A stretch of 64,000 nucleotides of DNA from assembly GCA_018696395.1 (NCBI GenBank), contig JABHQR010000017.1, positions 39,094 to 103,093 of the forward strand. The letters are read 5' to 3'. Origin of the DNA: an archaeon (lineage in GTDB: Archaea > Nanobdellota > Nanobdellia > Woesearchaeales > GW2011-AR9). Under the pieces are notes generated by a model, which was not told the DNA's origin, ran no database searches, and saw nothing but the letters and a program-made list of their open reading frames with translations. A program made the translations under genes and the position numbers. This document shows positions 27,213-41,403 of the stretch, one piece after another; the first letter of the stretch is position 1; every line of letters begins with the position of its first letter.

Positions 27213-27228
27213 CCGAAACATTTAAATA
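27213..27228 (+). promoter_or_regulatory. BRE + TATA box of the AOR/NAD cluster
   Basis: CCGAAA (27213-18) followed by TTTAAATA (27221-28), in canonical archaeal arrangement. Confidence 0.65.
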
Positions 27229-27230
27229 TA

Positions 27231-27247
27231 AGTGTTACTTGTACACT
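27231..27247. promoter_or_regulatory. Putative NrtR operator 1
   Basis: Perfect inverted repeat AGTGT-TACTTGT-ACACT with a GT-N7-AC core, 2 bp downstream of the TATA box. Confidence 0.7.
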
Positions 27248-27317
27248 AACGTAAGGTGATAAAAACAAAGTGTTTAATTGATCTTTTCCACGAGAAGATT
27301 TTTTTAATCTCACACTT

Positions 27318-27334
27318 AGTGTAAAAATGACAAA
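27318..27334. promoter_or_regulatory. Putative NrtR operator 2
   Basis: AGTGT-AAAAATG-ACAAA has the same spacing as operator 1. It lies in the leader before the likely AOR start at 27357. Confidence 0.55.
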
Positions 27335-29168
27335 AACAAACCAAGAAGGCTTGAAAATGAAAAGAAAACAAATATCTAAAGAATTAAACATTAATTTAAA
27401 TTTAGAACAAGTGAATCTTAAGTTAAGGGAAGAATATAATCTTGAAGAAATAATTGGGGGATTTGGTCGAGCAGTACATAAATTAAATGACCACATTGAT
27501 TACAATCCTGGTCTAACTGATGCTTATGATCCTAATAATTTGATCTGTTTTGATATCGGTTTTTTGACTGGATCAAAAGTAATGACTTCTAAAAGAACTT
27601 ATGTAAGTAGTTTAAGTCCATTGAAAACTAGTAATGCTGGAACTAATGGAATTTATTATTCAACTGCAAGTGGGGGTTTTGGATCTGCATTAAGGGATTG
27701 TGATTTAGATGCAATAAACATTATTGGGAAATGTCAAAATCCTTCTTATTTAGTAATTGATTATTCAAGTGGAAAGTTAGAAACAAGTTTTCAAGATGCA
27801 GGAGATCTTATGGGAAATACAACTGACCAAAAGATATCTTCTCTTTCTGAAAAGTATGACAATGCTTCTTTTTTAGTAATCGGGCTTGCAGGTGAAAATT
27901 TGGTAAGGTGTGCTAACATTGCTTTTAGCACTTCTGATCAATTGAGAAAAGGAACTAACCATATGAGATTTGCTGGTCGAGGAGGAATGGGGGCAGTAAT
28001 GGGTTCAAAGAATTTAGTTGCTATTGTAGTTAAAGGTGAACGAGAAGTAAGTAGGACACATTACAAATCTCAAAGTCTGGGTAATGATGTTAAAGAAATT
28101 AACAGAGAAATTGCTAGGGGTGAAGGAACTAGGAAATATCGGGAACTTGGTACTTTTTTTTCTAACATTGAAAGTTTAGAATATTTAAGTGCAGGAATTC
28201 ATCAAAATTTTAGTCAAGGTAATGATGTTAATACCAGGAATTTGTTTAGAGATTACTTAATACAAGATGGAATTGAAATTAAAGACAAAGGATGTCTTGG
28301 ATGTGGGATTAAATGTTGGAAAGAATTGTTTAAGGAAGGAAAAGTTTTAGGGAAATTAGATTATGAAAATGGTTCTTTGCTTGGGCCAAATTTAGGGATT
28401 AATGATGTGGAACAAATTCAACAATTAATAAATTTAACAGATGGTTATGGAATGGACGCTATGTCAACTGGTGTTTGTTTAGGTTATGAAATGGAAATTC
28501 AAGGGAAGTTTGGCAATTTTGAATTTGCTAAACAGATGATTGAGAAAATTGCATCTGGCGAACATGGTTTGAAAGAAGGTGTGAAAAGATATTCTGAATC
28601 AATAGGTCAAACTGAAAATGCAATGCATGTTAAAGGTGTTGAACTTGCGGCATATTTAGGGCAAGTAAATCCAGGATATGCTTTTGCAATTGCTGGTCCT
28701 CATACTTCTATGATGACTTATAATTCTTCTTGGAAACTAACTGCAAATAATTCAGTGGAGGAGTGGTCAGAAAATATAATTGATGGTGTTATACCAATTA
28801 TTTATGATATGAACGGGTTGTGTAAATTTTCAAAAGTAAGTTTAGGTGATGTTAGTAAACAATTAAATTTGCTTACTGGTGTTGAAACTTCATCTGATGA
28901 ATTGAAAAATTGTGCTAGGAAAGTAGCATTATTAGCAAGAAATATTGATTATAAATTGGGTTTCAATGAAAGTGACGACATTTTACCTGAAAGATGTTAT
29001 CAAGATTTAGAAATAAACGAACTTGGTGAACATTTCAATACTAAAGAATTTTTTGAAAGACTGAAACATTCAGTTTACAATTCTTATCATACTCTTGCAG
29101 GGGAATTTGGAATTAATTTAGTTAATGTAAATTATATGTTTGGATCAAAATTGATGGAGGTTGCTTAA
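27327..29168 (+). CDS. aor: Aldehyde:ferredoxin oxidoreductase family (W/Mo-pterin, 4Fe-4S)
   Basis: SPL...S..GG.FG, IGLAGEN, AGRGGMGAVMGSKNL, CLGCGIKC, GMDAMSTG, HVKG.E and GLCKF. Likely start is the ATG at 27357. Confidence 0.85.
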   Translation: MTKTNQEGLKMKRKQISKELNINLNLEQVNLKLREEYNLEEIIGGFGRAVHKLNDHIDYNPGLTDAYDPNNLICFDIGFLTGSKVMTSKRTYVSSLSPLKTSNAGTNGIYYSTASGGFGSALRDCDLDAINIIGKCQNPSYLVIDYSSGKLETSFQDAGDLMGNTTDQKISSLSEKYDNASFLVIGLAGENLVRCANIAFSTSDQLRKGTNHMRFAGRGGMGAVMGSKNLVAIVVKGEREVSRTHYKSQSLGNDVKEINREIARGEGTRKYRELGTFFSNIESLEYLSAGIHQNFSQGNDVNTRNLFRDYLIQDGIEIKDKGCLGCGIKCWKELFKEGKVLGKLDYENGSLLGPNLGINDVEQIQQLINLTDGYGMDAMSTGVCLGYEMEIQGKFGNFEFAKQMIEKIASGEHGLKEGVKRYSESIGQTENAMHVKGVELAAYLGQVNPGYAFAIAGPHTSMMTYNSSWKLTANNSVEEWSENIIDGVIPIIYDMNGLCKFSKVSLGDVSKQLNLLTGVETSSDELKNCARKVALLARNIDYKLGFNESDDILPERCYQDLEINELGEHFNTKEFFERLKHSVYNSYHTLAGEFGINLVNVNYMFGSKLMEVA

Positions 29169-30681
29169 AATGATTAATGAAGAAAATATCGGATCTGATA
29201 TAAGGAAACCAAATATGTTAGAATTTACTAAAGATTTAGCTTTAGCAGTTGCAGATTTTTATGAGTATTCTATGGCAGAAGCTAATATCCTTGAAGATAT
29301 TGTTGGTAAAGATACAGTATTTGATATGGTAGTTAGAAGGATGCCAACAAATAAAGTTGTTGGAAGATTTGAAAGAGATGGTGTTAAGTATGATGAATTA
29401 GAACAAAGAAAATATTTAATCAATGCTGGTTTAGAACAAGTTGCAGCATATTTTTTAGAAGCTAGGGGAACTGAAAAATTAAGAAATTATATGCAAGAAG
29501 TTCAAGGTGTTGAAAATACTACATTTTTAGATTGGGTAGAAAATATTTCTTTTCAAGGTGATGTTTATGCTATGCCAGAAGGTACTATATTCTTTGCGCA
29601 AGAACATCAATTAAGAGTTCATGAAAAATTTGAAGAAGCACAAGTGTTTGAAAGTTTATTACTTAATACAATCAATCCTCAAACTAATGTGGCAAGTACT
29701 GCAAATGATATTGCTCAAGTAGCTAATAAAATTTTACTTGAGGGGGGAAGTAGGAGAGCAACAAGTCCTCAAAGTTCGGTATTTAATTCTCGTGCAGCAA
29801 GAATTGGTGGTTTTACTGCAAGTTCTAATGTTGCATATGGGATGTTTTATCATGAAAAAGTGGGTGGTACGCATGGTCATTCTTATGTGATGTTACATCC
29901 AGATGAATACTCTTCATTTAAAGCTCAATCTGAATTATTTGGGAATAAAGTTTGTTTCTTATTAGATACTTACAATGTTGAAGAAGCTTTTGAAATATCA
30001 TTGAAAATTGTTGAAGAGGAAAATTTTGATAGTTTTGCATTTAGGATTGATAGTGGCGATTTATTACAACAAGCTAAATGGATTCATGATAAATTGCAAG
30101 AAAAAGGTTATGCTAGAGAAAGTTATGTTTTGGTAGCTTCAGATGATTTAACTGCGGGTAAGATTGATGTCTTGGAAAAAGAAAGAGCAGACATTGATAA
30201 ATATTTAGTTGGAACTTATGTTGTTAATCCACCTAAACCAGTACCAGGTGTTTTCAAATTAGCTGCTTACAAAAATGATAATAATAATCAAGAAGTAAGT
30301 AGTGATGAAGAAAATAATGGTTGGATTCTGAAAGGAAAGTTATCTGAAGAATTTAGTAAAGCCACATTACCTGGAATTAAACAAGTTTATCGTGTTGTTG
30401 GAGAAGATGGTTTTTACAAGAAGGATATCATTGCGTTTGAAGGGGAAGATTTAAGTGAATATTTAGATGAAAATGATACTGTTGAAGAATTACTTGTTTC
30501 AATAATTAAAGGAGGAAAACAAGTTTATAATTTTCCAACTATTAATGGAATTTCTCAACGAAGAGAAGAACAACTTTCTAGGTTTAATAATATAGGAGAT
30601 TATGAAATTTTAATCTCCTCGTTAGTGTTAAAAACACAACAACAAATCATGGAGGAACATGGTTTTTATCGGAGGAATTGA
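29161..30681 (+). CDS. pncB: Nicotinate phosphoribosyltransferase
   Basis: DFYEYSM, EGGSRR, SSNV..G, GGTHGHSYV (phospho-His region), LLDTY, RIDSGD and VGTY. Likely start is 29170. Confidence 0.85.
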   Translation: MLKMINEENIGSDIRKPNMLEFTKDLALAVADFYEYSMAEANILEDIVGKDTVFDMVVRRMPTNKVVGRFERDGVKYDELEQRKYLINAGLEQVAAYFLEARGTEKLRNYMQEVQGVENTTFLDWVENISFQGDVYAMPEGTIFFAQEHQLRVHEKFEEAQVFESLLLNTINPQTNVASTANDIAQVANKILLEGGSRRATSPQSSVFNSRAARIGGFTASSNVAYGMFYHEKVGGTHGHSYVMLHPDEYSSFKAQSELFGNKVCFLLDTYNVEEAFEISLKIVEEENFDSFAFRIDSGDLLQQAKWIHDKLQEKGYARESYVLVASDDLTAGKIDVLEKERADIDKYLVGTYVVNPPKPVPGVFKLAAYKNDNNNQEVSSDEENNGWILKGKLSEEFSKATLPGIKQVYRVVGEDGFYKKDIIAFEGEDLSEYLDENDTVEELLVSIIKGGKQVYNFPTINGISQRREEQLSRFNNIGDYEILISSLVLKTQQQIMEEHGFYRRN

Positions 30682-30683
30682 GA

Positions 30684-30818
30684 ATGAAAAATGTTGAGAA
30701 TGAAATTGTGAAAAAGTCAGTTTTGGTTTGTGAAAGTTTGGGAAAGATTAGTGGCAGTTATGGTGTTACTGAATTTTTTGTATTTTCAGATGGAATTGGT
30801 TTTGGAGACAGTTGGTGA
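30684..30818 (+). CDS. 44-aa small ORF of unknown function (not in ORF track)
   Basis: GGAGG at 30671-75 precedes the ATG. It reads MKNVENEIVKKSVLVCESLGKISGSYGVTEFFVFSDGIGFGDSW and fills the pncB-pncA gap. Confidence 0.5.
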   Translation: MKNVENEIVKKSVLVCESLGKISGSYGVTEFFVFSDGIGFGDSW

Positions 30819-31661
30819 TTGGAAAATAGGGGGATAAAGAAAATGAGAATATTTTACGATACCGATACACAAGTAGATTTTATGTCTGAAAATGGAGCTT
30901 TGTATGTCCCAGGGGCAGAAGAAATCAGGCTTTCTTTAAAAAAATTAACTCAGTATGCTAGAAATAATAACATTCCGATAATTGGTTCAGTGGACAGACA
31001 TTTTGGAACTGAGAAATACAAAGAAAAAGAATTAGAATTACAAAGGTGGGGTGGTCTTTTTCCTGATCATTGTATGGACGATACTGCAGGATTTGAAAAG
31101 ATATCTGAAACTTCTATAAGTCCTCTTTATTTTGATGTGCATGGTTCTTCACATCGTACTGATGACCTATACATCCCTTGTCTTAGGGAAGAAAATATCT
31201 CTTTTTCTAAATATATGATGAGGTATGAGTCAATAATCAGTCCGGACAAAATTGATTCTTTTTATCAAAATTTTACCACTGAAAAAAGAATCTCTTGGTG
31301 GCATTCAATATTATCTGGTATAAATCTTGAAAATATCACTTCAGCTTTAAATGAATTAAAACAAGAAAAATCAAAGGGTATTTATTTTGAAAAACAGTCT
31401 TATGATATTTTTTCTAATTCTCATTTAGATATTTTTCTTCATGAAGCAAAGGTTTCTGAAGCGATTGTTTATGGTGTGGCAACCGATTATTGTGTTAAGG
31501 CAGTAGTGTTAGGTATGCAAAAAAGAGAAATTCAAACTTATGTTGTTGAAGATGCAATCCAAGGTATTACTGAAGAATCTTCTGTGGCAGCAATTGAAGA
31601 AATGAAACTATCTGGGGCTAAAATTGTTTCTCTTGAACAAGTTCTGGGAGGTAAATTCTAG
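30819..31661 (+). CDS. pncA: Nicotinamidase/pyrazinamidase (isochorismatase family) with large insertion
   Basis: DTQVDF..GALYVPGA, D.H, FPDHC, FEK and GVATDYCV (catalytic Cys). Likely start is the ATG at 30843. Confidence 0.85.
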   Translation: MENRGIKKMRIFYDTDTQVDFMSENGALYVPGAEEIRLSLKKLTQYARNNNIPIIGSVDRHFGTEKYKEKELELQRWGGLFPDHCMDDTAGFEKISETSISPLYFDVHGSSHRTDDLYIPCLREENISFSKYMMRYESIISPDKIDSFYQNFTTEKRISWWHSILSGINLENITSALNELKQEKSKGIYFEKQSYDIFSNSHLDIFLHEAKVSEAIVYGVATDYCVKAVVLGMQKREIQTYVVEDAIQGITEESSVAAIEEMKLSGAKIVSLEQVLGGKF

Positions 31662-31678
31662 TTTGGAGGATAAATAAA

Positions 31679-32584
31679 ATGGCGGAAAGAAAAATAAAAT
31701 TGGCGAAAATGAACCCGGATTTAGTTAATAAGGAAATTGGAGATTTTGTTCTTGAAGATGTAACAAATAGAAAAGCAACTGGTTGTGTGATCGGTTTATC
31801 AGGTGGTGTTGATTCAACTGCTACTGCAGCAATTATCAAAAGTGCATTTGATAGATATAATCTGTTTAGTAATGGTCAGTCACTTGAATTAGTTGGTTAC
31901 ATATTACCTTCAAAAATTAATCATTACAAGGATACTGAAGATGGTGTTGATATTGCTAAACAGTTAGGTATTAGGTATGAAGTTCATAGTATTGAAGGGA
32001 TTGTTGAAGCACATAAGTTAACTAATCCTGAAGCTTTTGAATTTAATTATCATAAAGGGAATATGGTCTCAAGAATTAGGGCAAATATTCTCTCTACTAA
32101 ATCTGCAACTGAAAGAAAAATTTTAGCTGGTACTGGTAATCGTGACGAAGATTTTGGAATCGGTTATTACACTTTGTTTGGTGATGGGGCGGTACACTTA
32201 AGTCCAATAGGTAATTTACCAAAAAGGTTAGTTAGAGAAATAGCAGATTACCATGGTTTTTCTGATATTGCTAAAAAAATTCCTAGTGCTGGTCTTGAAC
32301 CAGGACAAACGGATTTTGGTGATTTGGGGTACAGTTATGATTTTGTGGAATTAGTAAGTGAAGGATTAATGCAGGGTTTTGAAAAAAAGGAACTTTATGG
32401 TCACAAACAAATAATTGGTCTTTCTCAAAAGGACATTGTTCAATATGCAAATTTGTATGGTTCTCCTAAATTAAGTAATTCTAAAGATATGATTGATGAC
32501 ATTTTGAGAAGGCATAACATTGCAATTGACAAAGCTAACTTAATTCATCCAAGGGCAGCACCTGTAACTTTGATTTACGAATGA
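31679..32584 (+). CDS. nadE: NH3-dependent NAD+ synthetase
   Basis: GLSGGVDS, GNMVSRIR, GTGNRDE, GYYTLFGDG, PSAGL and QTD. There is no nitrilase domain. Confidence 0.92.
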   Translation: MAERKIKLAKMNPDLVNKEIGDFVLEDVTNRKATGCVIGLSGGVDSTATAAIIKSAFDRYNLFSNGQSLELVGYILPSKINHYKDTEDGVDIAKQLGIRYEVHSIEGIVEAHKLTNPEAFEFNYHKGNMVSRIRANILSTKSATERKILAGTGNRDEDFGIGYYTLFGDGAVHLSPIGNLPKRLVREIADYHGFSDIAKKIPSAGLEPGQTDFGDLGYSYDFVELVSEGLMQGFEKKELYGHKQIIGLSQKDIVQYANLYGSPKLSNSKDMIDDILRRHNIAIDKANLIHPRAAPVTLIYE

Positions 32585-32607
32585 AATAATAATCTTAACT
32601 AAAATAA

Positions 32608-33105
32608 ATGAGGGTAAAAAAAATGAGTGAACAAAATAATGAAAGGCCGCAGAAAGTTTACAATGCAACCGATATGATTATTGAGTATTGTTCTAATAAT
32701 AAAGAGGGAATAGTGTTAATTGAACGAAAAAATCCACCTTTTGGTTATGCTTTACCTGGGGGCTTTTTAGAGAAACATCTTAGTTTAGGTGATAATGCAA
32801 GGAAAGAAACCAAAGAAGAGACTAATTTAGAATTTATTGTTGGAAATGAAGAGAAACCTTTCTTAGTTAAAGGTCAGCCAGATAGAGATCCGAGAGTTAG
32901 AGTTTTAAGTTTTGTTTATGTCGGTAAAGGTTATGGTGAATTGAGGGCAGGAGATGATGCTGCTAATGCACATCATGTCTCTTATGGTCAATTGAATGGG
33001 ATGTTAGGTAAAAGATTATTTGCATTTGATCATGAAGAAATTATTGTTCAATATCTTGAAAATGTTGGAAAATTGTACGATCTAAAAAAGGGTGAAATGA
33101 AATGA
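32608..33105 (+). CDS. Nudix hydrolase, ADP-ribose pyrophosphatase-like
   Basis: LIERKNPPFGYALPGG, ARKETKEETNL, PDRDPR, AGDDA and AFDH. Confidence 0.82.
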   Translation: MRVKKMSEQNNERPQKVYNATDMIIEYCSNNKEGIVLIERKNPPFGYALPGGFLEKHLSLGDNARKETKEETNLEFIVGNEEKPFLVKGQPDRDPRVRVLSFVYVGKGYGELRAGDDAANAHHVSYGQLNGMLGKRLFAFDHEEIIVQYLENVGKLYDLKKGEMK

Positions 33106-33860
33106 AAGATAATACTACCTTTTTCCCAGAAAGTTCACTTAAAAAAATTTTGGAAAATGATAAAGGGGGCTCTAGTAAAGTTGATAAAGATATATCTAGT
33201 AACAAAAAAAGATACTCCCGATTAGGTGTTATTGGACGTTTTCGTCCATTACATATTGGGGGGGCAATGATGTTAGAAACATTATGTCAACAATCAGGGT
33301 ATGTAATCATTGGAGTTGGCAGTGCTAACAAGTATAATATTCGTAACCCTTTTACTGCAGAAGAGTCTGTTAATATGATTGACAAATACTTATCTTCTCA
33401 AGGATATGATAATTATGAAATATTTACTATTAATGATTATGCTCATATTCCTGAATTTAGTGATGGGCAGAAATGGAAAAATGAAGTTAAGCAACATTTA
33501 GGTAAAATTGACGCTTTTATTACAGGAAATCCTTATTCTAAAAATTTGTTAGGGGCTGATTATAAAATAGTTCATCCTGGAGAATTAATCCCCCCTGAAA
33601 AATGGGTTTGGTTAAGGGGTACAATGGCTAGAGTTGAAATGGCTAAAAATTCTGATTTATGGGAAAAAATGGTCCCACAAGTTGTTGTTGAATATCTGTT
33701 AGAAAATAAACTAGTTGATAGATTTCAAAGGGAGTTCGGTTTACAAACTTTATCTTGTTTGGTTGAAGAAAGTAGTGGTGACTTGAGTCAGTCTTTAGGG
33801 GCTGGTTATGTTCAAAGAGAAAATTTGGAACAAGAGTATAAACATACTTTGGAAAAATAA
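33102..33860 (+). CDS. nadM: NadM-like NMN/NaMN adenylyltransferase (HxGH motif altered to HIGG)
   Basis: GRFRPLHIGG, IGVGSA, NPFTAEE, GNP and GT..R...W...VP matching archaeal NadM. Confidence 0.75.
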   Translation: MKDNTTFFPESSLKKILENDKGGSSKVDKDISSNKKRYSRLGVIGRFRPLHIGGAMMLETLCQQSGYVIIGVGSANKYNIRNPFTAEESVNMIDKYLSSQGYDNYEIFTINDYAHIPEFSDGQKWKNEVKQHLGKIDAFITGNPYSKNLLGADYKIVHPGELIPPEKWVWLRGTMARVEMAKNSDLWEKMVPQVVVEYLLENKLVDRFQREFGLQTLSCLVEESSGDLSQSLGAGYVQRENLEQEYKHTLEK

Positions 33861-33887
33861 ATCTTAAGAAAGTGAGGTAATAAAAAA

Positions 33888-34664
33888 ATGGTTCGTTTAG
33901 GGAGTTATGAAATCATTCGTCAGATTGGTGAAGGTGGATTTGGTAGGACTTATGAGGGTAGGCATGTCCTTAACAATAATATTAAAGCTTGTCTTAAACA
34001 GAACATTAACATTACTGATGAAGATGCAAAATTATTAATGCGGGAAGCAGAACTATTAACTAAAATTAGTCATTATTCTTTCCCAGCATTTAGAGATCTC
34101 TATCGTGTTGATGATGGGAGTATTGTACTTGCCATGGACTTTGCTGAAGGAAGAACTCTTGATAAAATTGTTGAAAAGCATAAAGGATTACACCCCGAAG
34201 AAGTTGCTTGGATTGCACAAAGGTCATTACAGGGATTATATTATTTGCACCATAAAGGGGTGATTCATGGTGATGTTAAACCACCTAATATGATGATTCA
34301 ACCTTGGGAACATAATGTTGTATTAGTTGATTTTGGTTTGTCAAGTATCAAACCTAAAAGTGATTCAAAAGCCGTAGGATACACTGAAGTTTTTGCTGCA
34401 CCTGAACTTCTTTCTGGGAAACCACCTTTGCCAGAATCTGATTTATATTCTTTAGGTTTAACTATGATATATGCTTGGGGTGGTGATCCAGTTGCTAAAA
34501 TTCATCCTCCTTATGTCCACAAATCTTTACAAAATTTTGTCAATGGTTTAGTACGATATAATGTTGCTGATAGGACTAATTGGGATAAGGAAGATTTAGT
34601 TAAAAAATTGTCAGATGCTAGATTAGAAGCGTTTGGTAGAAGGAGGTCAATAAAAAGTAAATGA
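33888..34664 (+). CDS. Hanks-type Ser/Thr protein kinase (catalytic domain only)
   Basis: IGEGGFG, CLK, E, IHGDVKPPN, DFG, APE and SDLYSLG. Confidence 0.92.
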   Translation: MVRLGSYEIIRQIGEGGFGRTYEGRHVLNNNIKACLKQNINITDEDAKLLMREAELLTKISHYSFPAFRDLYRVDDGSIVLAMDFAEGRTLDKIVEKHKGLHPEEVAWIAQRSLQGLYYLHHKGVIHGDVKPPNMMIQPWEHNVVLVDFGLSSIKPKSDSKAVGYTEVFAAPELLSGKPPLPESDLYSLGLTMIYAWGGDPVAKIHPPYVHKSLQNFVNGLVRYNVADRTNWDKEDLVKKLSDARLEAFGRRRSIKSK

Positions 34665-34766
34665 TTTGTTGGTTGTTGATTTTTAATTATTTGTTAAGTT
34701 AATAATTGAAAATATTAATTGAGATCTCGTATGAGTTAGCGAGAGCTATATGTAAATCAAATATAA

Positions 34767-35777
34767 ATGGGGGTACATAAAATGTACAGTTGGGGAGATG
34801 ATACAAGTACTTGGAAAAAACCAGGTTCTTATAACTATGGTTCGGCTAAAGCACCTTACCTTGATGACTTAAAAAAGGAGGCTGCAGATAAAGGGCCTCG
34901 AACATATGTTGGAACAAAAAAACCTAATTTGGATTTAGTTAATCCTAAAGGTAAAAAACTTTATTCTGAAAGTGAGAATCCAATAATTTTAGCAGTAGAT
35001 GGAACGGGTTCAATGCAATCTTGGCCAGGAGAAATATTTGATAGGTTACCTTTGTTTTACCAAACACTTTCAAAATATAAACCAGAAATTGAACTTAGTT
35101 TTTCAGTGATTGGTGATGCCATCTCTGATGATTGGCCATTGCAAATTTCTGCTTTTGGTAAAGGTGTGGAACTTGACGATTATCTGAAAGCGTTACATCC
35201 TGAAGGAAGAGGTGGTCCTGGAATTAGAGAAAGTTATGAATTATTTAGTTACTTTATTCATGAACATTGTAAAACTCCTAATGCAGTTTCACCTTTCTTG
35301 TTTATAATGGGCGATGAGAAATTTTACAAGAATGTTGATCCAAGCCAAGTAGAACAATTAATTGGGGATAAATTACAAGGTCCATTAGATTCTGCTAAGA
35401 CCATTCAAGAATTAACTCAACGTTATGATGTTTACTTGTTAAGGAAAAGTTATAGCCATGGTCTTGATAAAGAAATTGAAGGGCAATGGAAAGAAGTTCT
35501 TGGAGCACAGAAAGTAATTCCAATCTATGATCCAGAAAGAGTAGTTGATGTTGCTATGGGCCTTGTAGCAAAGAAGTGGGGTTATTTTGGAGATTTTGAA
35601 AACAATTTGGGTGCTAGGCAAGACTCAGTTGGAAAAGAATCTGTTATGATGTCTTTGAAAGCTGCACCTGGTGTTGATTTTGATAATTTAGAATCTACAA
35701 TGGTGGGAAGTTCAATTGTTGGTGATGCACCAAGTATGAAAAGTAAAAACTTAGCATCAATGGTAAGTAAACCTTAA
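34767..35777 (+). CDS. vWA-domain protein (MIDAS)
   Basis: AVDGTGSM (DxTxS MIDAS-like), IGDA..D.WPLQ, EGRGG...ESYEL and MGDE. Likely start is 34782. Confidence 0.7.
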   Translation: MGVHKMYSWGDDTSTWKKPGSYNYGSAKAPYLDDLKKEAADKGPRTYVGTKKPNLDLVNPKGKKLYSESENPIILAVDGTGSMQSWPGEIFDRLPLFYQTLSKYKPEIELSFSVIGDAISDDWPLQISAFGKGVELDDYLKALHPEGRGGPGIRESYELFSYFIHEHCKTPNAVSPFLFIMGDEKFYKNVDPSQVEQLIGDKLQGPLDSAKTIQELTQRYDVYLLRKSYSHGLDKEIEGQWKEVLGAQKVIPIYDPERVVDVAMGLVAKKWGYFGDFENNLGARQDSVGKESVMMSLKAAPGVDFDNLESTMVGSSIVGDAPSMKSKNLASMVSKP

Positions 35778-35833
35778 TTTTTTGTTTTGAAATTTGATTG
35801 AAATAAATAGAAAATAAATAGGAGGAAAATAAA

Positions 35834-36724
35834 ATGGGATTAAGCACTTCCGGAATGGATAAAGCGTATAAAACTAGTGGGGAAATTTTTGAACAGGTTA
35901 GTAAATTATACAAACCTGGTTTGGCTGAACAGTTAGGGGAAATTGAACCTGGTGAGGTTGTAGTAGTTCAAGGAACTTATGATCATGTAGAAAAATTGTT
36001 AGATACAATTAAAGTTCCTTATACTTCAATCACCAGTTCTGAAATATCAACACATAATGGTGGGAGAGTTATGTTTGTTAATTGTGCGTCATACAATTCT
36101 GTTGATGGCAAAACCAAAAATGCAATACATAATTATGTTGATGAAGGAGGAAGGTTGATCAGTACAGATTGGGCAGTTGGTTTGGTTGAAAAAGTTTTTC
36201 CAGGTAAGGTACAGAAAACTGCTAAAACAGGTGACGATGTTGTAGAAATTCAATGTTGTAGTGATTTAGGTAGAAAATTTGTTGGAATGAATTATGCACA
36301 ATGTAGGCCTAAATGGTGGCTGGAAGGAAGTAGTGACATTTATTCTATTGGTGAAGGTGTTACTGCTATAATCACTAGTTCTGAAATGGAAGAAAAGTAT
36401 GGTCAACCTTATGTTGCAGTTGGTTTTAAGGAAGGTAAAGGTGAAGTTATACATTTTATTAGCCACCTTGAATTGCAAAGAACTCATCTTAGAACTGAAG
36501 AAGACAAAGAAGGACTTGATACTTTTCTGGAAAAAATGAAAATTGAAAAAACTCCTGAAATGGATGATATGAAAGTTGCAGAATTAGAAGCTGCGTACAG
36601 TACCCTAAACACAGTTGCTTACTTGTGTTTAAGGTCTCCTGTGTTAGGTGGAGATATGAAAAGTGTGACTTTCAATTCGACAGCTGGGCCTGTTGGTGGA
36701 GCAGTGAGCAAAAAACTAGTCTGA
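35834..36724 (+). CDS. Uncharacterized protein, possible class I glutamine-amidotransferase-like fold
   Basis: VMFVNC, YVDEGGRLISTDWA and GKGEVIHFISHLE resemble GATase1-like topology. GGAGG SD upstream. Confidence 0.45.
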   Translation: MGLSTSGMDKAYKTSGEIFEQVSKLYKPGLAEQLGEIEPGEVVVVQGTYDHVEKLLDTIKVPYTSITSSEISTHNGGRVMFVNCASYNSVDGKTKNAIHNYVDEGGRLISTDWAVGLVEKVFPGKVQKTAKTGDDVVEIQCCSDLGRKFVGMNYAQCRPKWWLEGSSDIYSIGEGVTAIITSSEMEEKYGQPYVAVGFKEGKGEVIHFISHLELQRTHLRTEEDKEGLDTFLEKMKIEKTPEMDDMKVAELEAAYSTLNTVAYLCLRSPVLGGDMKSVTFNSTAGPVGGAVSKKLV

Positions 36725-36759
36725 ACATGCTAATATAAAAATAAATTGGATAAATAAAA

Positions 36760-37659
36760 ATGGTAAAAGCAATTGTAACAATTCCTCCTTATGCACCTTT
36801 TATTGAAGAAGTTGTAAATCATCCCATTGTAAGTGGGCTTAGGTTGAATACAGTTATGCCAACGAAAGGTAGTTTGGAGGAATTGTTAAAACAATTGCAA
36901 GATAAGGCTAATGGGAAAGATCTTTGGATTGATTTAAAGTATCGGCAGTTACGTGTAAAAAATTATGGTATTCCACCTTTTACCGAAATTGAATTAACTC
37001 ATAATATTGACGTGGATACTCCTGTGACTGCTTATTTTAGTGATGGGAAAGAACGTGCAAAGATTTTGGAAGTTGATGGTAATAGATTAATCATGCAAGA
37101 TGGGCCTAAACGAATGGTTGGTCCTGGTGAATCTATTAACATTGTTCATCCATCGCTTAATGTGGAAGGACATTTTACCAAAACTGACTTAAAATACATT
37201 GAAGCTGCTGAAAAAGTTGGGTTAAAAACATATATGTTATCTTTTGTGGAAAGTGTTGATGATGTGACTAGATTAAAAGAGAAAGTTTCAGATGCAATTA
37301 TTGTTGCTAAGATTGAATCTCAGAAAGGCATGGGTTATGTTCGTAATGTGTGGAAGGATGAATCTCGGTTAATGGCAGCAAGAGGTGATTTGTTTGTTGA
37401 ACTTGAAATGCCGCATTATGTAACAAAAGCAGTGGAAGAAATTGTTATGAAAGATAATAACGCAATTGTAGCTTCAAGAATCTTTCCATCTTTATCTTAT
37501 AGTTTGGAGCCTAGTTGTAATGATATCGGTGATGTTGATAACCTGATTAGGATGGGGTATCAGAATTTCATGTTAGGCGATGATATCTGTATGAAGAGGG
37601 ATTCAGTGATAAGTGGTCTTAACTTGCTGAAAGCGATAGCAGATAATTATTACAAGTGA
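36760..37659 (+). CDS. Divergent pyruvate-kinase-like protein (A+B domains only)
   Basis: RLN, DLK..QLR, LSFV, IVAKIES and MAARGDL.VE match the PK barrel. The C-domain is absent. Confidence 0.7.
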   Translation: MVKAIVTIPPYAPFIEEVVNHPIVSGLRLNTVMPTKGSLEELLKQLQDKANGKDLWIDLKYRQLRVKNYGIPPFTEIELTHNIDVDTPVTAYFSDGKERAKILEVDGNRLIMQDGPKRMVGPGESINIVHPSLNVEGHFTKTDLKYIEAAEKVGLKTYMLSFVESVDDVTRLKEKVSDAIIVAKIESQKGMGYVRNVWKDESRLMAARGDLFVELEMPHYVTKAVEEIVMKDNNAIVASRIFPSLSYSLEPSCNDIGDVDNLIRMGYQNFMLGDDICMKRDSVISGLNLLKAIADNYYK

Positions 37660-37781
37660 TTCATTTTTTATTTTTTTAATATTATTGTTTGCAATGATTA
37701 TAATTAAGGGTAGAAAATCAATTATAAGTTGAGCAACTAAAGAAAAAAAGTGATGGTGTTTAACAAGGAGGAGAAACTAAA

Positions 37782-38726
37782 ATGGGATTAGAAAATTTAG
37801 TTTTTGTACCAAGTAAAAGTAGGTATGAATTGGAACTTGAAGAAAAAGGATCAGATCATTTTGTTAAAAAGAGTTTTTCTTCTGAAGAGATTTATAATAA
37901 AATTGTAATAAGTCATCATAAACAGAAAGCTAATCTCTCTCGTGTTGTTAATTTGTTTGGTAGTGATGCTGTTGTTGATAGGTCTAAATTAAATAATGAT
38001 TTAGTAAGGGGTAAAGACTTGTTTATATTTTTAGGAGGAGATAATCATTTTACTTATTGTGCACAAAAAGTTTTATCTTATTTACAAAGAAATCCTCAAG
38101 AAAGGAAATATGTTGCAGGTGTGGTTCTTGATCCTGATAAAAGTACTGGAGCACTATTATCTTTTAGAGTTAATGAATTTTTAGAAGGTGTTACTTCTGA
38201 ACTAGCAAGTGGTTTTGGTGAAAATAAAGGTTTTGAAAATTATTCTGTTGAACAATGGACTACTTTGGAAGGTTCAGTTAAGTATAATAGTAGTGTCAGA
38301 AAATTATTGGTTCCAGCTATTGATGAATATTTTGTTGGAGAATCTGCTAGAATGCAAATGTCAAGAAATGTTGTTTATTTAGATGGTAAAGAAATATTTC
38401 CAGACAAATCTTCTGGTTTGTTGGTTGCAACAGGTTCAGGTTCAAATCAAGGGTCGTGGTATAATAATGTTTACGAAATGATTTTTAATGAAAGTGGAGA
38501 ATTTCCTAAAGGGTCTGAATCTGCTAAAATGATTTTAACTGAACATCGATCAAGAAGTGTTGCTAATCTTTACAAAGGTCAAATCTTGGAAATTCATTCT
38601 TATAATGATGATTATGGGATTATCTCTGCAGATTGTCATAAAGAACATACAACTACATTTCCAATGGGCGCTAAAGCAGAAATTAAAGTTAGTGATTTAA
38701 AGTTAAGGGTGTTGGTTGGTTTTTGA
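37782..38726 (+). CDS. nadK: NAD kinase family protein, NADK2-like
   Basis: LGGDN, GV..DP..S.G.L, AIDEYFVGE and KSSGLLVATGSGS..W. Confidence 0.72.
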   Translation: MGLENLVFVPSKSRYELELEEKGSDHFVKKSFSSEEIYNKIVISHHKQKANLSRVVNLFGSDAVVDRSKLNNDLVRGKDLFIFLGGDNHFTYCAQKVLSYLQRNPQERKYVAGVVLDPDKSTGALLSFRVNEFLEGVTSELASGFGENKGFENYSVEQWTTLEGSVKYNSSVRKLLVPAIDEYFVGESARMQMSRNVVYLDGKEIFPDKSSGLLVATGSGSNQGSWYNNVYEMIFNESGEFPKGSESAKMILTEHRSRSVANLYKGQILEIHSYNDDYGIISADCHKEHTTTFPMGAKAEIKVSDLKLRVLVGF

Positions 38727-38740
38727 AAGAAAATGTTTAG

Positions 38741-39052
38741 TTAAGTAGCGCCTAACCTTTTAGCCCAATATTCTTCAGTTTTTCTTTCATTATATCTGCA
38801 ACTTAAATCTCTGAATGTTTCATAACTGTCAATTGTTTGGAATAATTTTTCATAATCTTCTTTAGTAAGGTGTTCGTGGAATGCTGATGAGAAACATATG
38901 GAAAAGTTATGACCTAAGTAGTGCATATTGTATAATATTTTACCTGGTTTTGTTATTTCACTAAGATAATTTCTAATTTGTAACTTTCCTTCTGGAAGAG
39001 ATTTCTCTTTCATTAATTTTCCCTGAACTAAATCTTCAATTGATTTTGTCAT
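38741..39052 (-). CDS. Hypothetical protein (103 aa)
   Basis: ORF track entry. The ATG at 39052 lies about 24 nt after a TTTATAAA box on the minus strand. Confidence 0.55.
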   Translation of the reverse strand: MTKSIEDLVQGKLMKEKSLPEGKLQIRNYLSEITKPGKILYNMHYLGHNFSICFSSAFHEHLTKEDYEKLFQTIDSYETFRDLSCRYNERKTEEYWAKRLGAT

Positions 39053-39115
39053 GGAAGTTTTAAACACTGGATTATTTATAAATATTTATGACTAAGATAT
39101 TTTAAGTAAAAAAAT

Positions 39116-39802
39116 TTAGAAATCTGGTTTCCATTCACTTTTGTCGTTTCTTTGACGTGTGAATGAGTACAATGCTGCGGGTCGATGAGGACCTTTTTTC
39201 TTTTTATGTAAATCTTTAAGTATGTGTAATTCAGAAATTTTTTTTCTAAAGTTACGTTTGTCTAATTCTGTACCTAAAATAACTTCATAAGCTCTTTGAA
39301 GTTCTGTAAGTGTAAATTCTTTTGACATTAATTGAAATGCAAAGTCACTCTCTTGAACTTTTTTACGTAATCTGTGGATAGAATATTCAATAATTCTTTT
39401 GTGATCGAAAGCAATTTCTGGTAAATTGTAAACTGAATGCCAAGTGAATAAGTTACCCTCCTGAAAATCAATTTTGTTGGAATCAATAAGCCCATAATAT
39501 ACGATTGTAACTGTTCTTATTCTGGTATCTCTTTTCAAATTTTGTCCAAAAGTATAAAGTTGTTCTAAGAAAACTTCTCCAGGATTAATTTTACCTTTTA
39601 ATTTCAATGCTATTCTAGCCGTATCTTCAATTTTTTCATTATAACGTACAAATCTTCCAGGTAAAGCATATTTTCCTAAGTAAGGGTTATCTTCTCTTTT
39701 AATCAAACCAACTTTAATATCATCATTCTTAATTGTAAATAGAATTACGTCTACTGCTAATCCTGGTTTATTATACTTGTCAAGGTCATCTTTTGAAGTC
39801 AT
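39116..39802 (-). CDS. nrtR: NrtR-family ADP-ribose-sensing transcriptional repressor (degenerate Nudix + winged HTH)
   Basis: AVDVILF, ALPG.FV, LEQLYTFG...RD.R, AFDH, FTL.ELQ..YE.ILG..LDKRNFRKK and RPA.LY. The Nudix Glu residues are lost (ARIALKLKG). Confidence 0.9.
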   Translation of the reverse strand: MTSKDDLDKYNKPGLAVDVILFTIKNDDIKVGLIKREDNPYLGKYALPGRFVRYNEKIEDTARIALKLKGKINPGEVFLEQLYTFGQNLKRDTRIRTVTIVYYGLIDSNKIDFQEGNLFTWHSVYNLPEIAFDHKRIIEYSIHRLRKKVQESDFAFQLMSKEFTLTELQRAYEVILGTELDKRNFRKKISELHILKDLHKKKKGPHRPAALYSFTRQRNDKSEWKPDF

Positions 39803-39859: not shown

Positions 39860-40675
39860 TTACATATAATGGGCTCCTATCGCTAAAGAAAATTCTCCAT
39901 TATTTGGGAAGTATGTTTTCTTGTTTAACATAGCGGAATAGTTTTCTAAAGATTCTTTCAATGAAGGGAAGTTAGTTACTGGTGAACCAATATAAACTAT
40001 GTTATTGGTCCATTTGAATAATTTTGAAGAGTGTGATAATAAGGCAAGATCTTTGACAGTAGTTGAACTGATAATATCAATTGAGGTTGCTAGGACATCT
40101 TCTTTTGAAGAATCTTTATTAGCTTTAGCAAAATGGCTAATGACGTATTCTCCCATGATTGTTCCTTCTAAATTTGGTAATCTCTCTTTCACATAAATGT
40201 TAAGGGGTTTTCCTTTAGTTGCCATTTCTGACATCTCTTGATAATTATCAATTCCTAAATGTTTTCCAATTCCCTCTAAAAATCCTCCACTCAATGAATT
40301 TCCAAGGGGTACAGGGATTGTAAAACCATGGGACCTTAATGAGTAAGAAGTTCCTGTACCAATAGATACAAGAATAAAGTTTGTTAGGTCTTCTCCATTA
40401 TACTGCATTAATTTTTTTAAACCTGCAACTTGTATTTTTTTCTCTTGAATTATTAAATCTTTTTTTTGTATATTTATTTCAAAATCTTTGAAATATTTTT
40501 CATAATTATTGGAATAACCAACTCCCACAATATTAACTTTTGTAATTCTATCATTGTTTAGTTCTTTAACAATCTCTTCTAAGTTGGTATTTGCAGTTGA
40601 AGAAAATTTAAATTTTTCATTATTTCTCCAAGCTGCTTTTACAAGTGATGTTCCAAAATCAATCCCAGCTATCAT
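39860..40675 (-). CDS. coaW: Type II pantothenate kinase-like (ASKHA fold)
   Basis: GIDFGTSLVK, LVSIGTGTS, G.S.SGGF..G, A..G..L, ISHFAK, KEDV and GEFSLAIGA. Confidence 0.72.
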   Translation of the reverse strand: MIAGIDFGTSLVKAAWRNNEKFKFSSTANTNLEEIVKELNNDRITKVNIVGVGYSNNYEKYFKDFEINIQKKDLIIQEKKIQVAGLKKLMQYNGEDLTNFILVSIGTGTSYSLRSHGFTIPVPLGNSLSGGFLEGIGKHLGIDNYQEMSEMATKGKPLNIYVKERLPNLEGTIMGEYVISHFAKANKDSSKEDVLATSIDIISSTTVKDLALLSHSSKLFKWTNNIVYIGSPVTNFPSLKESLENYSAMLNKKTYFPNNGEFSLAIGAHYM

Positions 40676-40789: not shown

Positions 40790-40905
40790 GGTGGACAGCT
40801 TACTGCCGTTCCCATATAAAATACGGTACAGGACAATACGTAAGCGCCTTTAACATCTGTGTTCGAAAAGGGAACAGGTGAACCACGCCACTCTGGCCGT
40901 CCGAA
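40790..40905 (-). rRNA. rrf: 5S rRNA (solitary)
   Basis: Minus strand GGACGGCCAGAGTGG...CACCTGTTCCCTTTTCGAACACAGATGTTAA...GGGAAC...GCTGTCC. Helix I GGACGGC/GCTGTCC closes it, with a TTTATAAA box upstream and a T-tract downstream. Confidence 0.9.
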
Positions 40906-40947: not shown

Positions 40948-41403
40948 TTAAGTATTGTTAATATCCCAACCGTTTTCACTATAATATTTGTTGTTTTTTA
41001 TATGAACTAAAACCTCTTTAATATAAAGAATAATATTCTTTGGTAAATTATCTAAATCAAACCAACTTAAATCATCACATTTGTGTGGTTCCATGTTAGT
41101 AATTTTACCTTCCCAACTTCTAGTAATAAAAAAAGCGTCAATTCTTTCTTCATTATTAACATGAGATTTTCTATGCATCATGTGTACTAGTTCTAAATTT
41201 TCAGTTTGAAGTTCAATACCTGCTTCTTCTTTAGTTTCTCTGATAATTGCTTGAGTAAAAGTTTCACCTTCATCAACATGTCCAGCAATTAAACTGTACA
41301 TCCCATCACAATAACCACTGTTTTGTCGTCTAAGAAGCATTACTTTATTTTCTTTAAATAAAACGAGATAAGAAGCTGGTATTATTTTATGTCTTTCTGC
41401 CAT
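40948..41403 (-). CDS. Nudix hydrolase (MutT-like)
   Basis: Intact Nudix box GHVDEGETFTQAIIRETKEEAG, plus NMEPHKC..L.WF. Confidence 0.88.
   Translation of the reverse strand: MAERHKIIPASYLVLFKENKVMLLRRQNSGYCDGMYSLIAGHVDEGETFTQAIIRETKEEAGIELQTENLELVHMMHRKSHVNNEERIDAFFITRSWEGKITNMEPHKCDDLSWFDLDNLPKNIILYIKEVLVHIKNNKYYSENGWDINNT

Follow-up and report, generated by a model that had tools for sequence, protein, structure and literature searches.

The closest described relatives of the gene cluster analyzed here are bacterial NrtR-regulated pncA-pncB-nadE(-nadD) operons for the salvage of nicotinamide adenine dinucleotide (NAD) (Rodionov et al. 2008, PMC2330246). The cluster occupies 27.3-38.7 kb of a 64-kb stretch of DNA from a woesearchaeal archaeon (contig JABHQR010000017.1, positions 39,094 to 103,093). 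We call this whole stretch the window and number all its positions from its first letter. The window and the bacterial operons have in common the Preiss-Handler enzymes PncA, PncB and NadE, the same regulator with a Nudix-like and a winged-helix part, and the same 21-bp operator with the core GT-N7-AC, predicted in our case, which in bacteria precedes both the operon and nrtR. The window differs in its archaeal (DPANN) host, in having NadM in place of NadD, in the convergent orientation of nrtR and in several extra genes. These encode a protein kinase, a vWA protein, a protein similar to class I glutamine amidotransferases (GATase-like), a small relative of pyruvate kinase (PK), which we call mini-PK or PK-like, an NADK2-like protein and AOR (aldehyde:ferredoxin oxidoreductase). 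The nrtX and nrtY genes described along with the bacterial operons were found in other taxa (PMC2330246). Here we describe a vWA/mini-PK module that occurs with or without the kinase, is conserved across domains of life, is carried by phages as well and is built into the final stage of NAD synthesis.

Compared with Preiss-Handler salvage in general, the PncA, PncB and NadE families are all present. The NadM-like protein reads HIGG in place of HxGH and scores 86 bits against NF002243, under the cut-off of 127. Phages, in turn, rebuild NAD from its breakdown products by the pathways NARP1, NARP2 and NARP3. The cluster has in common with them this task, the combination of an adenylyltransferase of the nicotinamide mononucleotide adenylyltransferase (NMNAT) type with a Nudix protein, and the existence of phage-borne homologues of a part of the cluster. 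NARP1 consists of Adps, an ADP-ribose pyrophosphokinase resembling the synthetase of phosphoribosyl pyrophosphate (PRPP), and of Namat; neither was found by Pfam and NCBIfam among the 12 cluster proteins. NARP2 uses NampT (NadV) and Nmnat, whereas the phosphoribosyltransferase here is of the NaPRT type, with no NampT in the cluster. Neither PnuC nor the NadR-like bifunctional enzyme of NARP3 (PMC13464706) is encoded in the cluster. The route of the cluster is a deamidated one because PncA and NadE are present. Since their defining enzymes are absent, the cluster is not NARP1, NARP2 or NARP3, and the kinase-vWA-PK module that is shared with phages belongs to no NARP.

Triads of a vWA protein, a Ser/Thr kinase and a PP2C phosphatase are known as the TerY-P type. 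In these triads, as in our cluster, a vWA domain with a metal-ion-dependent adhesion site (MIDAS) lies beside a Hanks-type kinase, and a phospho-switch logic is proposed. In contrast to the triads, the cluster has no MoxR ATPase, and a PP2C phosphatase was found neither in it nor among its conserved neighbors. A mini-PK or a protein resembling adenylosuccinate synthetase (PurA-like) takes the third place, and there is a tight linkage with NAD biosynthesis genes. In the survey of vWA-containing conflict systems by the Aravind group (PMC7159879), no pyruvate kinase or NMNAT is mentioned. Predicted anti-ADP-ribosylation systems centered on ADP-ribosylglycohydrolase (ARG) (Iyer et al. 2022, PMC9503650) share with loci of the module NrtR-like regulators that join Nudix and helix-turn-helix (HTH) domains, a vWA "chaperone", and ARG or ARPP. 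Unlike these systems, the window has no ARPP, rhodanese-phosphatase or nuclease, and no ARG homologue was found anywhere in its 64 kb; the NadM-vWA-PK core is undescribed in PMC9503650.

The last related arrangement is the trio of Bixzunavirus phages (NC_067270.1, 151812-154494). In the cultured phage I3 it consists of the kinase gp270, the vWA protein gp271 and the PurA-like gp273. Along with it goes the family phrog_2971, to which the vWA protein of the viral contig L090 (see below) belongs. The phage vWA protein is about 33% identical to ours, keeps the MIDAS and directly follows the kinase as in DPANN. It differs in that the third enzyme of the phage is similar to adenylosuccinate synthetase and no NAD genes adjoin; the annotations of all these proteins read hypothetical or unknown function. 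The searchable literature, which is incomplete, yielded no account of a NadM-vWA-PK or kinase-vWA-PK module, and the module may have been described elsewhere.

The cluster and the linkage of its module

With a G+C content of about 30%, the window is rich in A and T, and the named relatives of its proteins come from metagenome-assembled genomes (MAGs) of Woesearchaeota/Nanoarchaeota (DPANN). There are 11 well-supported genes between 27.3 and 38.7 kb, all on the plus strand and separated by -8 to 137 nt. They are listed below together with one open reading frame (ORF) that we rejected and with nrtR.

27327-29168, plus strand: AOR (PF02730 AFOR_N 1.5e-44, PF01314 AFOR_C 2.8e-43); translation probably begins at the ATG at 27357
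29161-30681, plus strand: PncB/NaPRT, nicotinate phosphoribosyltransferase (NAPRTase_N and NAPRTase_C; NCBIfam NaPRT 1.7e-84, score below the NCBIfam equivalog cut-offs); overlaps AOR by 8 nt
30678-30818, plus strand: 46-aa ORF, not supported as a gene
30819-31661, plus strand: PncA, nicotinamidase (isochorismatase 1.3e-24, PRK11609 2.2e-16); the start is likely the ATG at 30843
31679-32584, plus strand: NadE, NAD synthetase of the NH3 type (PF02540 NAD_synthase 4.2e-45), without a glutaminase domain
32608-33105, plus strand: Nudix hydrolase of the ADP-ribose pyrophosphatase type (PF00293 3.3e-09)
33102-33860, plus strand: NadM-like adenylyltransferase for nicotinamide or nicotinate mononucleotide (archaeal NMNAT 1f9a 6.6e-14); overlaps the Nudix gene by 4 nt
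33888-34664, plus strand: Hanks-type Ser/Thr kinase (Pkinase 4.3e-36), kinase domain only, 258 aa
34782-35777, plus strand: vWA protein; no Pfam match, fold from an AlphaFold2 (AF2) model
35834-36724, plus strand: GATase1-like protein; no Pfam match, fold from an AF2 model
36760-37659, plus strand: PK-like protein, mini-PK (PF00224 4.4e-13), 299 aa
37782-38726, plus strand: NADK2-like protein; no Pfam match, subfamily profile against human NADK2 4.7e-25
39116-39802, minus strand: NrtR (PF21906 NrtR_WHD 1.7e-25, residues 155-214), convergent with the operon

An earlier, sequence-only reading of this DNA had described 12 co-directional genes with short gaps. Its gene list is correct except for the 46-aa ORF, which it took as 44 aa: a tblastn search against 89 related loci gave no match below E = 3.9, and the ORF is in frame directly 5' of pncA. 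We left it out of the gene count for these two reasons, and it is probably not a gene. Three candidates were rejected as conserved members of the cluster, namely this ORF and a 108-aa ORF (38741-39067), which have no homologues in the related loci, and AOR, which lies in the cluster in only two of the 62 other DPANN loci.

When one genome per species was scanned, the vWA family turned up in 323 genomes. We examined the 80 best of the vWA-family loci and three others, i.e., 62 DPANN and 21 bacterial loci; the DPANN counts are lower bounds, many contigs being cut off. All 62 DPANN loci contain the vWA gene. It is accompanied by genes for NadM-like, kinase and PK-like proteins (57 loci each), NadE (47), Nudix (45), NrtR (35, at either end of the cluster), PncA (34), NaPRT (28) and the GATase-like protein (23). 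A canonical GGDGT-type NAD kinase (NADK) was found in 25 loci and a GGDN-type NADK in 13; the canonical enzyme takes the position of the window's NADK-like gene in relatives more often than the GGDN type. Less frequent members are ARG (20), NadA (11), a nucleotidyltransferase-methyltransferase fusion (11) and a radical S-adenosylmethionine (SAM) protein (9). The order NadM-kinase-vWA-(GATase-like)-PK is practically fixed in DPANN, where 57 of the 62 loci retain NadM-kinase-vWA-PK.

The bacterial loci belong to Planctomycetota, Myxococcota, Chloroflexota, Acidobacteriota (Blastocatellia) and MAGs labelled Clostridia. The NadM-like gene lies immediately 5' of the vWA gene in all 21 of them, and a PK-like gene follows in 16. 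Counting both domains, NadM-like and vWA genes are adjacent or separated by the kinase alone in 78 of 83 cellular loci. A tight NadM-vWA-PK-NadE operon with no kinase is present in three contigs for which genes were called, representing two phyla and one further assembly. Its products are a NadM-like protein of 175-194 aa, a vWA protein of 320-336 aa, a PK-like protein of about 300 aa and a glutamine-dependent NadE of 482-569 aa, and its gaps measure -4 to 125 nt (mostly 12 nt or less). These operons are surrounded by recR/dnaX, ribosomal-protein, pheS and recG genes, neighbors that make the context a housekeeping one and not a defense island. A second protein search gave 989 bacterial relatives, including those of the cultured Chondromyces crocatus and C. 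apiculatus and of many Anaerolineae. Protein identity across phyla and domains is 45-66%.

These synteny counts rule out a chance juxtaposition of NAD genes and the module. They also bear out the sequence-only reading where it joined the vWA, kinase and PK-like genes to NAD genes, since homologues of the three co-occur with NAD genes in the 62 DPANN and 21 bacterial loci.

Some neighbors of the module were observed repeatedly. In C. apiculatus an ARPP-1 domain protein (PF20208, 9.8e-48) is encoded about 4 kb upstream of the NadM-vWA-PK-NadE operon, past two sulfatase-related genes, and ARG (5.7e-71) directly downstream of it. The C. crocatus locus contains ARPP-1 in the corresponding place and no ARG. 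The Chondromyces ARPP-1 and ARG genes are all on the minus strand of their loci (L081:3908-5524, L081:13764-14735 and L088:2191-3576). The fusion mentioned above is a 517-aa protein that joins a HIGH-type nucleotidyltransferase (GRHH motif) to a SAM methyltransferase (L053:12550-14103, minus strand; L044; L054; and eight other DPANN loci). The radical-SAM protein is encoded between NadE and Nudix in its nine DPANN loci (e.g., L002:7025-7900, L006 and L033).

A scan of IMG/VR revealed 45 viral contigs (L090-L134), many of them 130-485 kb long, with relatives of the vWA protein. The kinase gene comes first in 40 of them, followed by vWA in all 45, with the MIDAS reading D[VE]TGSM, and then by a third gene, which is PK-like in 13 contigs and PurA-like (PF00709 5.7e-59) in 32. 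Identity between the window and phage proteins reaches 47% for the kinase (J-domain kinases, E 5e-83) and is about 35% for vWA and 40% for the PK-like protein. An HPD motif occurs near the N terminus of 32 of the 37 viral kinases that were scored, and Pfam (PF00226) confirms the J domain in the kinase of L090; the domain is absent from the 258-aa DPANN kinase. In L090, genes for Nudix, ARG and NadE-like proteins are situated 5 kb upstream of the module, and those for EF-G, RNase HII and an R2K ATP-grasp protein lie on its other side; each has a match among the PHROG families. ARG lies beside the module in four phage triad loci. GenBank contains the vWA family in 219 phage records, about 200 of which are mycobacteriophages of the Bixzunavirus type. 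Among GenBank phages, the PK-like gene was seen only in the 485-kb uncultured phage LR745208.1.

Proteins of the module and its neighbors

The motifs of a protein kinase (GxGxxG, the beta-3 Lys, HGD...N, DFG and APE) are all legible in the window kinase, which is of the non-RD type because its catalytic motif reads HGD. The AF2 model of the vWA protein (34 homologues) has a pLDDT of 87, and its top PDB matches are all vWA domains with probability 1.0 (CMG2, NorD and the integrin beta I domain). The MIDAS is intact (DGTGSM), with D78-x-T80-x-S82 invariant in the alignment.

The C terminus of the vWA protein differs between groups. In the window it is a disordered, basic, Ser/Thr-rich tail (...SMKSKNL...). 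Tails of this kind with a [KR]-x-L motif, e.g., KKSKSL, are found in DPANN with the kinase, and similar ones (KTKRLL or a terminal xRL) in phages with the J-domain kinase. In bacteria, which have no adjacent kinase, the tail is a zinc ribbon or absent. Thus, the presence of the kinase and the C terminus of vWA vary together. The basic, Leu-terminated tails may resemble Hsp70-binding or kinase-docking peptides.

The GATase-like model (pLDDT 85) matches class I glutamine amidotransferases (3m3p 7.1e-08, 2d7j 1.2e-07, GATase subunit of GMP synthetase). Its nucleophile elbow is an invariant T111-D112-W113. Because this strand-helix elbow reads Thr-Asp-Trp, the protein has no catalytic Cys and is a pseudo-amidotransferase. 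It ends in a KSxKL-type tail of the same kind as that of vWA, and in one distant homologue an FHA domain, which binds phosphothreonine, is attached at the C terminus. We rejected the idea that it serves as the glutaminase of the short NH3-type NadE. It lacks the Cys and does not anticorrelate with glutaminase-fused NadE: it occurs with the fused form in 11 loci and with the short form in five. The partners of distant bacterial GATase-like homologues are HTH regulators, not NAD genes: the genes form divergent pairs with XRE-type HTH regulators (L084:1682-3255, L086:3286-4996, L085:1079-2137), and one of the loci adjoins DpdD, PLD and helicase genes.

The PK-like protein has the same TIM-barrel A domain as canonical pyruvate kinase, the same Arg/Asn/Asp/Lys/Glu/Asp catalytic motifs and a short lid (B) domain. 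At about 300 aa, it lacks the C-terminal allosteric and tetramerisation domain. The profile match ends within the barrel, and the protein scores 67 bits against PK family cut-offs of 306-432; PK structures match down to 2e-11. RLN, DLKxRQLR, KIES and ARGDL do not vary among DPANN, bacteria and phages, with 74 cellular and 13 phage sequences compared. All catalytic motifs being kept, the protein is truncated, not degenerate. It belongs to a family of its own, with about 116 clusters at E<1e-30 and with motifs such as GD[DE]xC; one member is fused with an ATPase of the PP-loop superfamily, to which NadE belongs. The motifs of the 321-aa "pyruvate kinase" PDB 8IW2 differ from those of the family.

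The NADK-like protein has GGDN[HSF]F instead of GGDGT, and this is conserved among the aligned GGDN-type sequences (n=12). The subfamily profile matches human mitochondrial NADK2 over its full length at 4.7e-25 and the solved bacterial and archaeal NAD kinases at 2e-17 or weaker. Judging by the alignment, GGDN is a conserved subfamily trait.

Of the salvage proteins, PncA has a large insertion, and its isochorismatase match is confined to residues 178-274; the D/K/C catalytic residues and the DxH metal site are legible. NadE scores 139.5 bits against TIGR00552 (cut-off 63.65). The top NCBIfam matches of the Nudix protein, at about 1e-6, are to the Nudix half of NadM-Nudix. The second His of the NadM motif is replaced throughout DPANN (HxG[GAST]), and bacterial copies read HLGH. 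NrtR consists of an N-terminal Nudix-like domain, in which we read a degenerate Nudix box, and a C-terminal winged helix.

The vWA, GATase-like and NADK-like assignments had been made without Pfam support and hold against the AF2/PDB and NADK2 profile matches. The claim of altered catalytic motifs is right for NadM-like (HIGG), NADK-like (GGDN) and GATase-like (T-D-W) proteins and wrong for the PK-like protein, which keeps all its motifs. The name "degenerate metabolic kinases" does not suit the PK-like protein, with its invariant catalytic motifs, or the NADK-like protein, whose GGDN appears to be a subfamily trait.

NrtR operators and transcription units

The 62 DPANN loci contain 87 copies (up to three mismatches) of the palindrome TTAGTGTATnnnATACACTAA, which can be written as TTAGTGTAT-N3-ATACACTAA. 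It is 21 bp long with the core GT-N7-AC and so fits the rule for NrtR operators in bacteria, a 21-bp palindrome with this core (PMC2330246). The sites lie upstream of genes for NaPRT, NrtR, PncA, NadA, NadM, NADK, the radical-SAM protein and the nucleotidyltransferase-methyltransferase fusion. They are frequently in tandem ahead of NaPRT, about 20 nt before the start of NrtR, and 59-148 nt before PncA in relatives. In two loci, L024 and L041, such a site is located 23 nt before vWA, at the position of the 17-nt element described below. Two of the sites precede the fusion gene in L044, and sites lie upstream of the radical-SAM gene in L006 and L033.

A position weight matrix (PWM) was built from the DPANN sites and run over the whole window with shuffled-sequence controls. 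The three best matches in the window are the following.

27229-27249, strand not assigned: predicted NrtR operator 1, TAAGTGTTACTTGTACACTAA; PWM 15.6, the best in the 64-kb window, about 100 nt before AOR
27316-27336, strand not assigned: predicted NrtR operator 2, a weaker half-palindrome; PWM 13.6, third-best, overlapping the first ATG of the AOR ORF
30622-30642, strand not assigned: predicted internal NrtR operator, inside the 3' end of pncB and upstream of pncA; PWM 14.5, second-best

Each of these scores is within the range of the shuffled controls (maximum 16.7); since the scores alone do not exceed the controls, support for the window operators comes from their position and from the relatives. 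The variant at operator 1 recurs in L007, L027 and L031, and operators 1 and 2 are in tandem like the two sites before NaPRT in relatives. A weak operator-like site is seen at the NrtR start (39801, score 10.0). The proposal that NrtR controls the cluster is supported by the DPANN palindrome before NAD genes and by the positions of the three best matches, before AOR and before pncA. The window also contains a 48-nt direct repeat, D6, with copies at 27302-27349 and 30608-30655 (77% identity) that hold the sites at 27316 and 30622; regulatory sequence before AOR appears to have been duplicated before pncA.

The two further signals concern the second half of the cluster.

34733-34749, strand not assigned: 17-nt palindromic element GAGTTAGCGAGAGCTAT, directly 5' of the ribosome-binding site of vWA
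37664-37677, plus strand: T6 and T7 runs directly after the stop of the PK-like gene, read as an archaeal-type terminator signal at which transcription would end

The 17-nt element lies in the 117-nt gap before vWA. Of 61 DPANN loci, 30 (e.g., L046, L042 and L047) have it, with the consensus GAGCTAGCGATAGCTCT, in which the core TAGC...AGCT is invariant. A second complementary stretch (GCGRG...CYCGC) follows the element in L007, L014, L015, L031 and L045. Its reading as an RNA hairpin gained no support: in the two registers tested there is next to no covariation, with just four changes, all C to U, that retain a G·U pair. The element may be a DNA operator or an RNA structure. A T5 run follows the kinase gene. 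The T-runs after the kinase and PK-like genes, together with the distinct conserved element before vWA, suggest that the vWA-GATase-like-PK unit and the NADK-like gene are transcribed apart from the salvage genes, against the single transcription unit assumed at first.

Beyond NrtR, the Fumble/type II pantothenate-kinase-like gene 39860-40675 (minus strand; PF03630 27.2 bits, cut-off 28.5) adjoins nrtR on its upstream side in the same orientation, and nrtR may be co-transcribed with it. A second, canonical Nudix gene (40948-41403, minus strand) lies further upstream of nrtR. Between these two genes is a 5S rRNA (40790-40904, minus strand; RF00001, 50 bits, E 4.7e-08), apart from which an Rfam scan of 27.0-42.5 kb gave nothing.

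Possible roles of the module

Our preferred reading, to which we give a probability of roughly 40%, is that the region is a composite of NrtR-controlled NAD salvage and an autonomous, mobile vWA/mini-PK module that is tied to NadM/NadE and switched by the kinase. Our confidence in the anatomy (gene identities, folds, motifs, synteny, viral homologues and operator-like sites) is much higher; in the identity of the phosphoryl acceptor it is much lower than in the overall picture. In favor of the reading are the synteny in cells, the fusion of a PK-like protein with a PP-loop ATPase, the invariant PK and MIDAS residues, the joint variation of kinase and vWA tail, the FHA fusion of a GATase-like homologue and the operator-like sites.

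According to this composite reading, PncA and PncB would convert nicotinamide to nicotinate mononucleotide, and the NadM-type adenylyltransferase and NH3-dependent NadE would finish NAD. The Nudix protein would split ADP-ribose, and the NADK2-like kinase would yield NADP. NrtR would repress these genes through the predicted 21-bp operators before AOR and pncA, presumably until induced by ADP-ribose. The core of the module would be the MIDAS-bearing vWA protein and the mini-PK, placed in cells between nadM and nadE or NADK. It would be preceded by the Hanks-type kinase in DPANN and huge phages and supplemented with the Cys-less GATase-like protein in one third of DPANN. The vWA protein may be a Mg2+-dependent adaptor of the mini-PK, perhaps replacing the lost regulatory domain. 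By forming a complex it could link phosphotransfer driven by phosphoenolpyruvate (PEP) with the ATP-consuming NadM and NadE steps, and the supply of adenine nucleotides would thereby be coupled to, or gated for, the rebuilding of NAD. The kinase might toggle the adaptor by phosphorylating its basic Ser/Thr-rich tail; the GATase-like protein has a like tail.

Several results weigh against this composite. The PK-like gene is absent from five bacterial loci, and no viral locus has a NadM-like gene within 8 kb of the module. Because NadM is missing from this range in phages and a PurA-like gene replaces the PK-like one in 32 of 45 viral contigs, ATP supply to NadM and NadE cannot be the universal role of the module. 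As the DPANN NadM-like proteins have lost the second His of the HxGH motif, their activity may be low or their function regulatory. The operator scores in the window stay within the shuffled range, and the suggested division into separate transcription units sets the module apart from the salvage genes.

The sequence-only reading had proposed a stress or conflict response. NAD cleaved by NADases or ADP-ribosyltransferases would yield ADP-ribose and derepress NrtR, NAD(P) would be rebuilt, and the kinase and vWA protein would emit a phosphorylation signal, all as a cellular counterpart of NAD reconstitution by phages. We consider this rather unlikely, although part of the evidence is in its favor. 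NrtR-type operators precede the cluster, and ADP-ribose frees bacterial NrtR from DNA (PMC2330246). ARG is found near the module in 20 of 62 DPANN loci, in C. apiculatus and in four phage triad loci, and ARPP-1 in both Chondromyces. The kinase-vWA-PK triad is carried by huge phages, in L090 with the Nudix, ARG and NadE-like genes 5 kb away, and predicted anti-ADP-ribosylation systems combine Nudix-type regulators with vWA chaperones (PMC9503650). Against this stands the composition of the window cluster, in which we found no NADase, ADP-ribosyltransferase, effector or phosphatase, and for which PADLOC gave only generic kinase models (PD-T4-6, mad6). PncA, PncB and NadE under NrtR are the usual housekeeping arrangement in bacteria, so that with NadM they form an ordinary salvage design and not a special rescue system. 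Each fetched locus has one module, which is strongly conserved and syntenic in at least 60 DPANN species, unlike patchy, fast-evolving defense islands; the three annotated bacterial contigs have housekeeping neighbors. Conservation and context look more like homeostasis than like a fast-evolving conflict system. The supposed link to phages stands for the kinase-vWA-PK homologues but not for a NAD-reconstitution pathway.

Two other explanations concern the module itself. The PK-like protein could be a new kinase that acts on a small molecule of the NAD pathway, with vWA as its assembly or regulatory subunit, so that NadM-vWA-PK-NadE would make up a short pathway complete in itself. With PEP as donor, it might phosphorylate nicotinamide or nicotinate riboside, NAD or nicotinate adenine dinucleotide; it might also be a ribose-bisphosphate kinase making PRPP. 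The operon order in the three annotated contigs agrees with this, as do the intact catalytic site in a family set apart from canonical PK by its scores and its GD[DE]xC motif, the fusion to a PP-loop ATPase, and the analogy of NadR, in which NMNAT and riboside kinase domains are fused (PMC9503650, PMC13464706). We find the explanation unlikely: DPANN loci mostly have NADK as well, no PnuC-type transporter was seen among labelled or Pfam-annotated neighbors, and the phage PK-like protein does without NadM and is replaceable by a PurA-like enzyme. That very exchange, PK-like in 13 and PurA-like in 32 viral contigs, is what one would expect if kinase-vWA(-PK) were a general regulatory cassette for whatever nucleotide-metabolic enzyme adjoins it (NadM in cells, PurA-like or PK-like proteins in phages), the PK-like protein then being a target and the phage version working through host Hsp70 recruited by the J domain. 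The J domain of the L090 kinase, the HPD motif in most viral kinases, the possible likeness of the vWA tails to Hsp70-binding or kinase-docking peptides and the trio of the cultured phage I3 point the same way. A cassette of this kind is nonetheless distinctly improbable: bacterial operons keep vWA and PK-like genes without any kinase, DPANN kinases have no J domain, and vWA and PK-like genes co-occur far more tightly than it predicts.

A bolder reading, which we regard as doubtful, takes the kinase-vWA-mini-PK trio for a mobile system, hitherto unrecognized, that restores NAD or adenine nucleotides. In it, a phosphotransferase driven by PEP, bound and gated by a phospho-switchable vWA adaptor, would rebuild or protect a depleted ATP/NAD pool, with a PurA-like substitute in many phages. 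Huge phages would use it, through an Hsp70-recruiting J-domain kinase, against nucleotide-depleting defenses, and it would have been domesticated inside nadM-nadE operons in DPANN and four bacterial phyla. If so, the trio would be a new class beside NARP1-3 with a new enzyme activity.

NAD salvage is, to our knowledge, regarded as completely mapped. Still, two or three uncharacterised proteins are encoded between nadM and nadE or NADK in the 83 examined loci, which represent two domains of life. Cultured entry points exist in C. crocatus, in C. apiculatus and in the genetically tractable Bixzunavirus phages, which grow on M. smegmatis. The function of the module could bring to light an enzyme activity, or a point of control, that is new in the homeostasis of NAD or adenine nucleotides. 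It could also expose a new form of phage metabolic takeover or counter-defense and show how genome-reduced DPANN symbionts maintain their cofactor pools. In cells as in phages, the module probably marks a step or a control point in the upkeep of NAD or adenine nucleotides.

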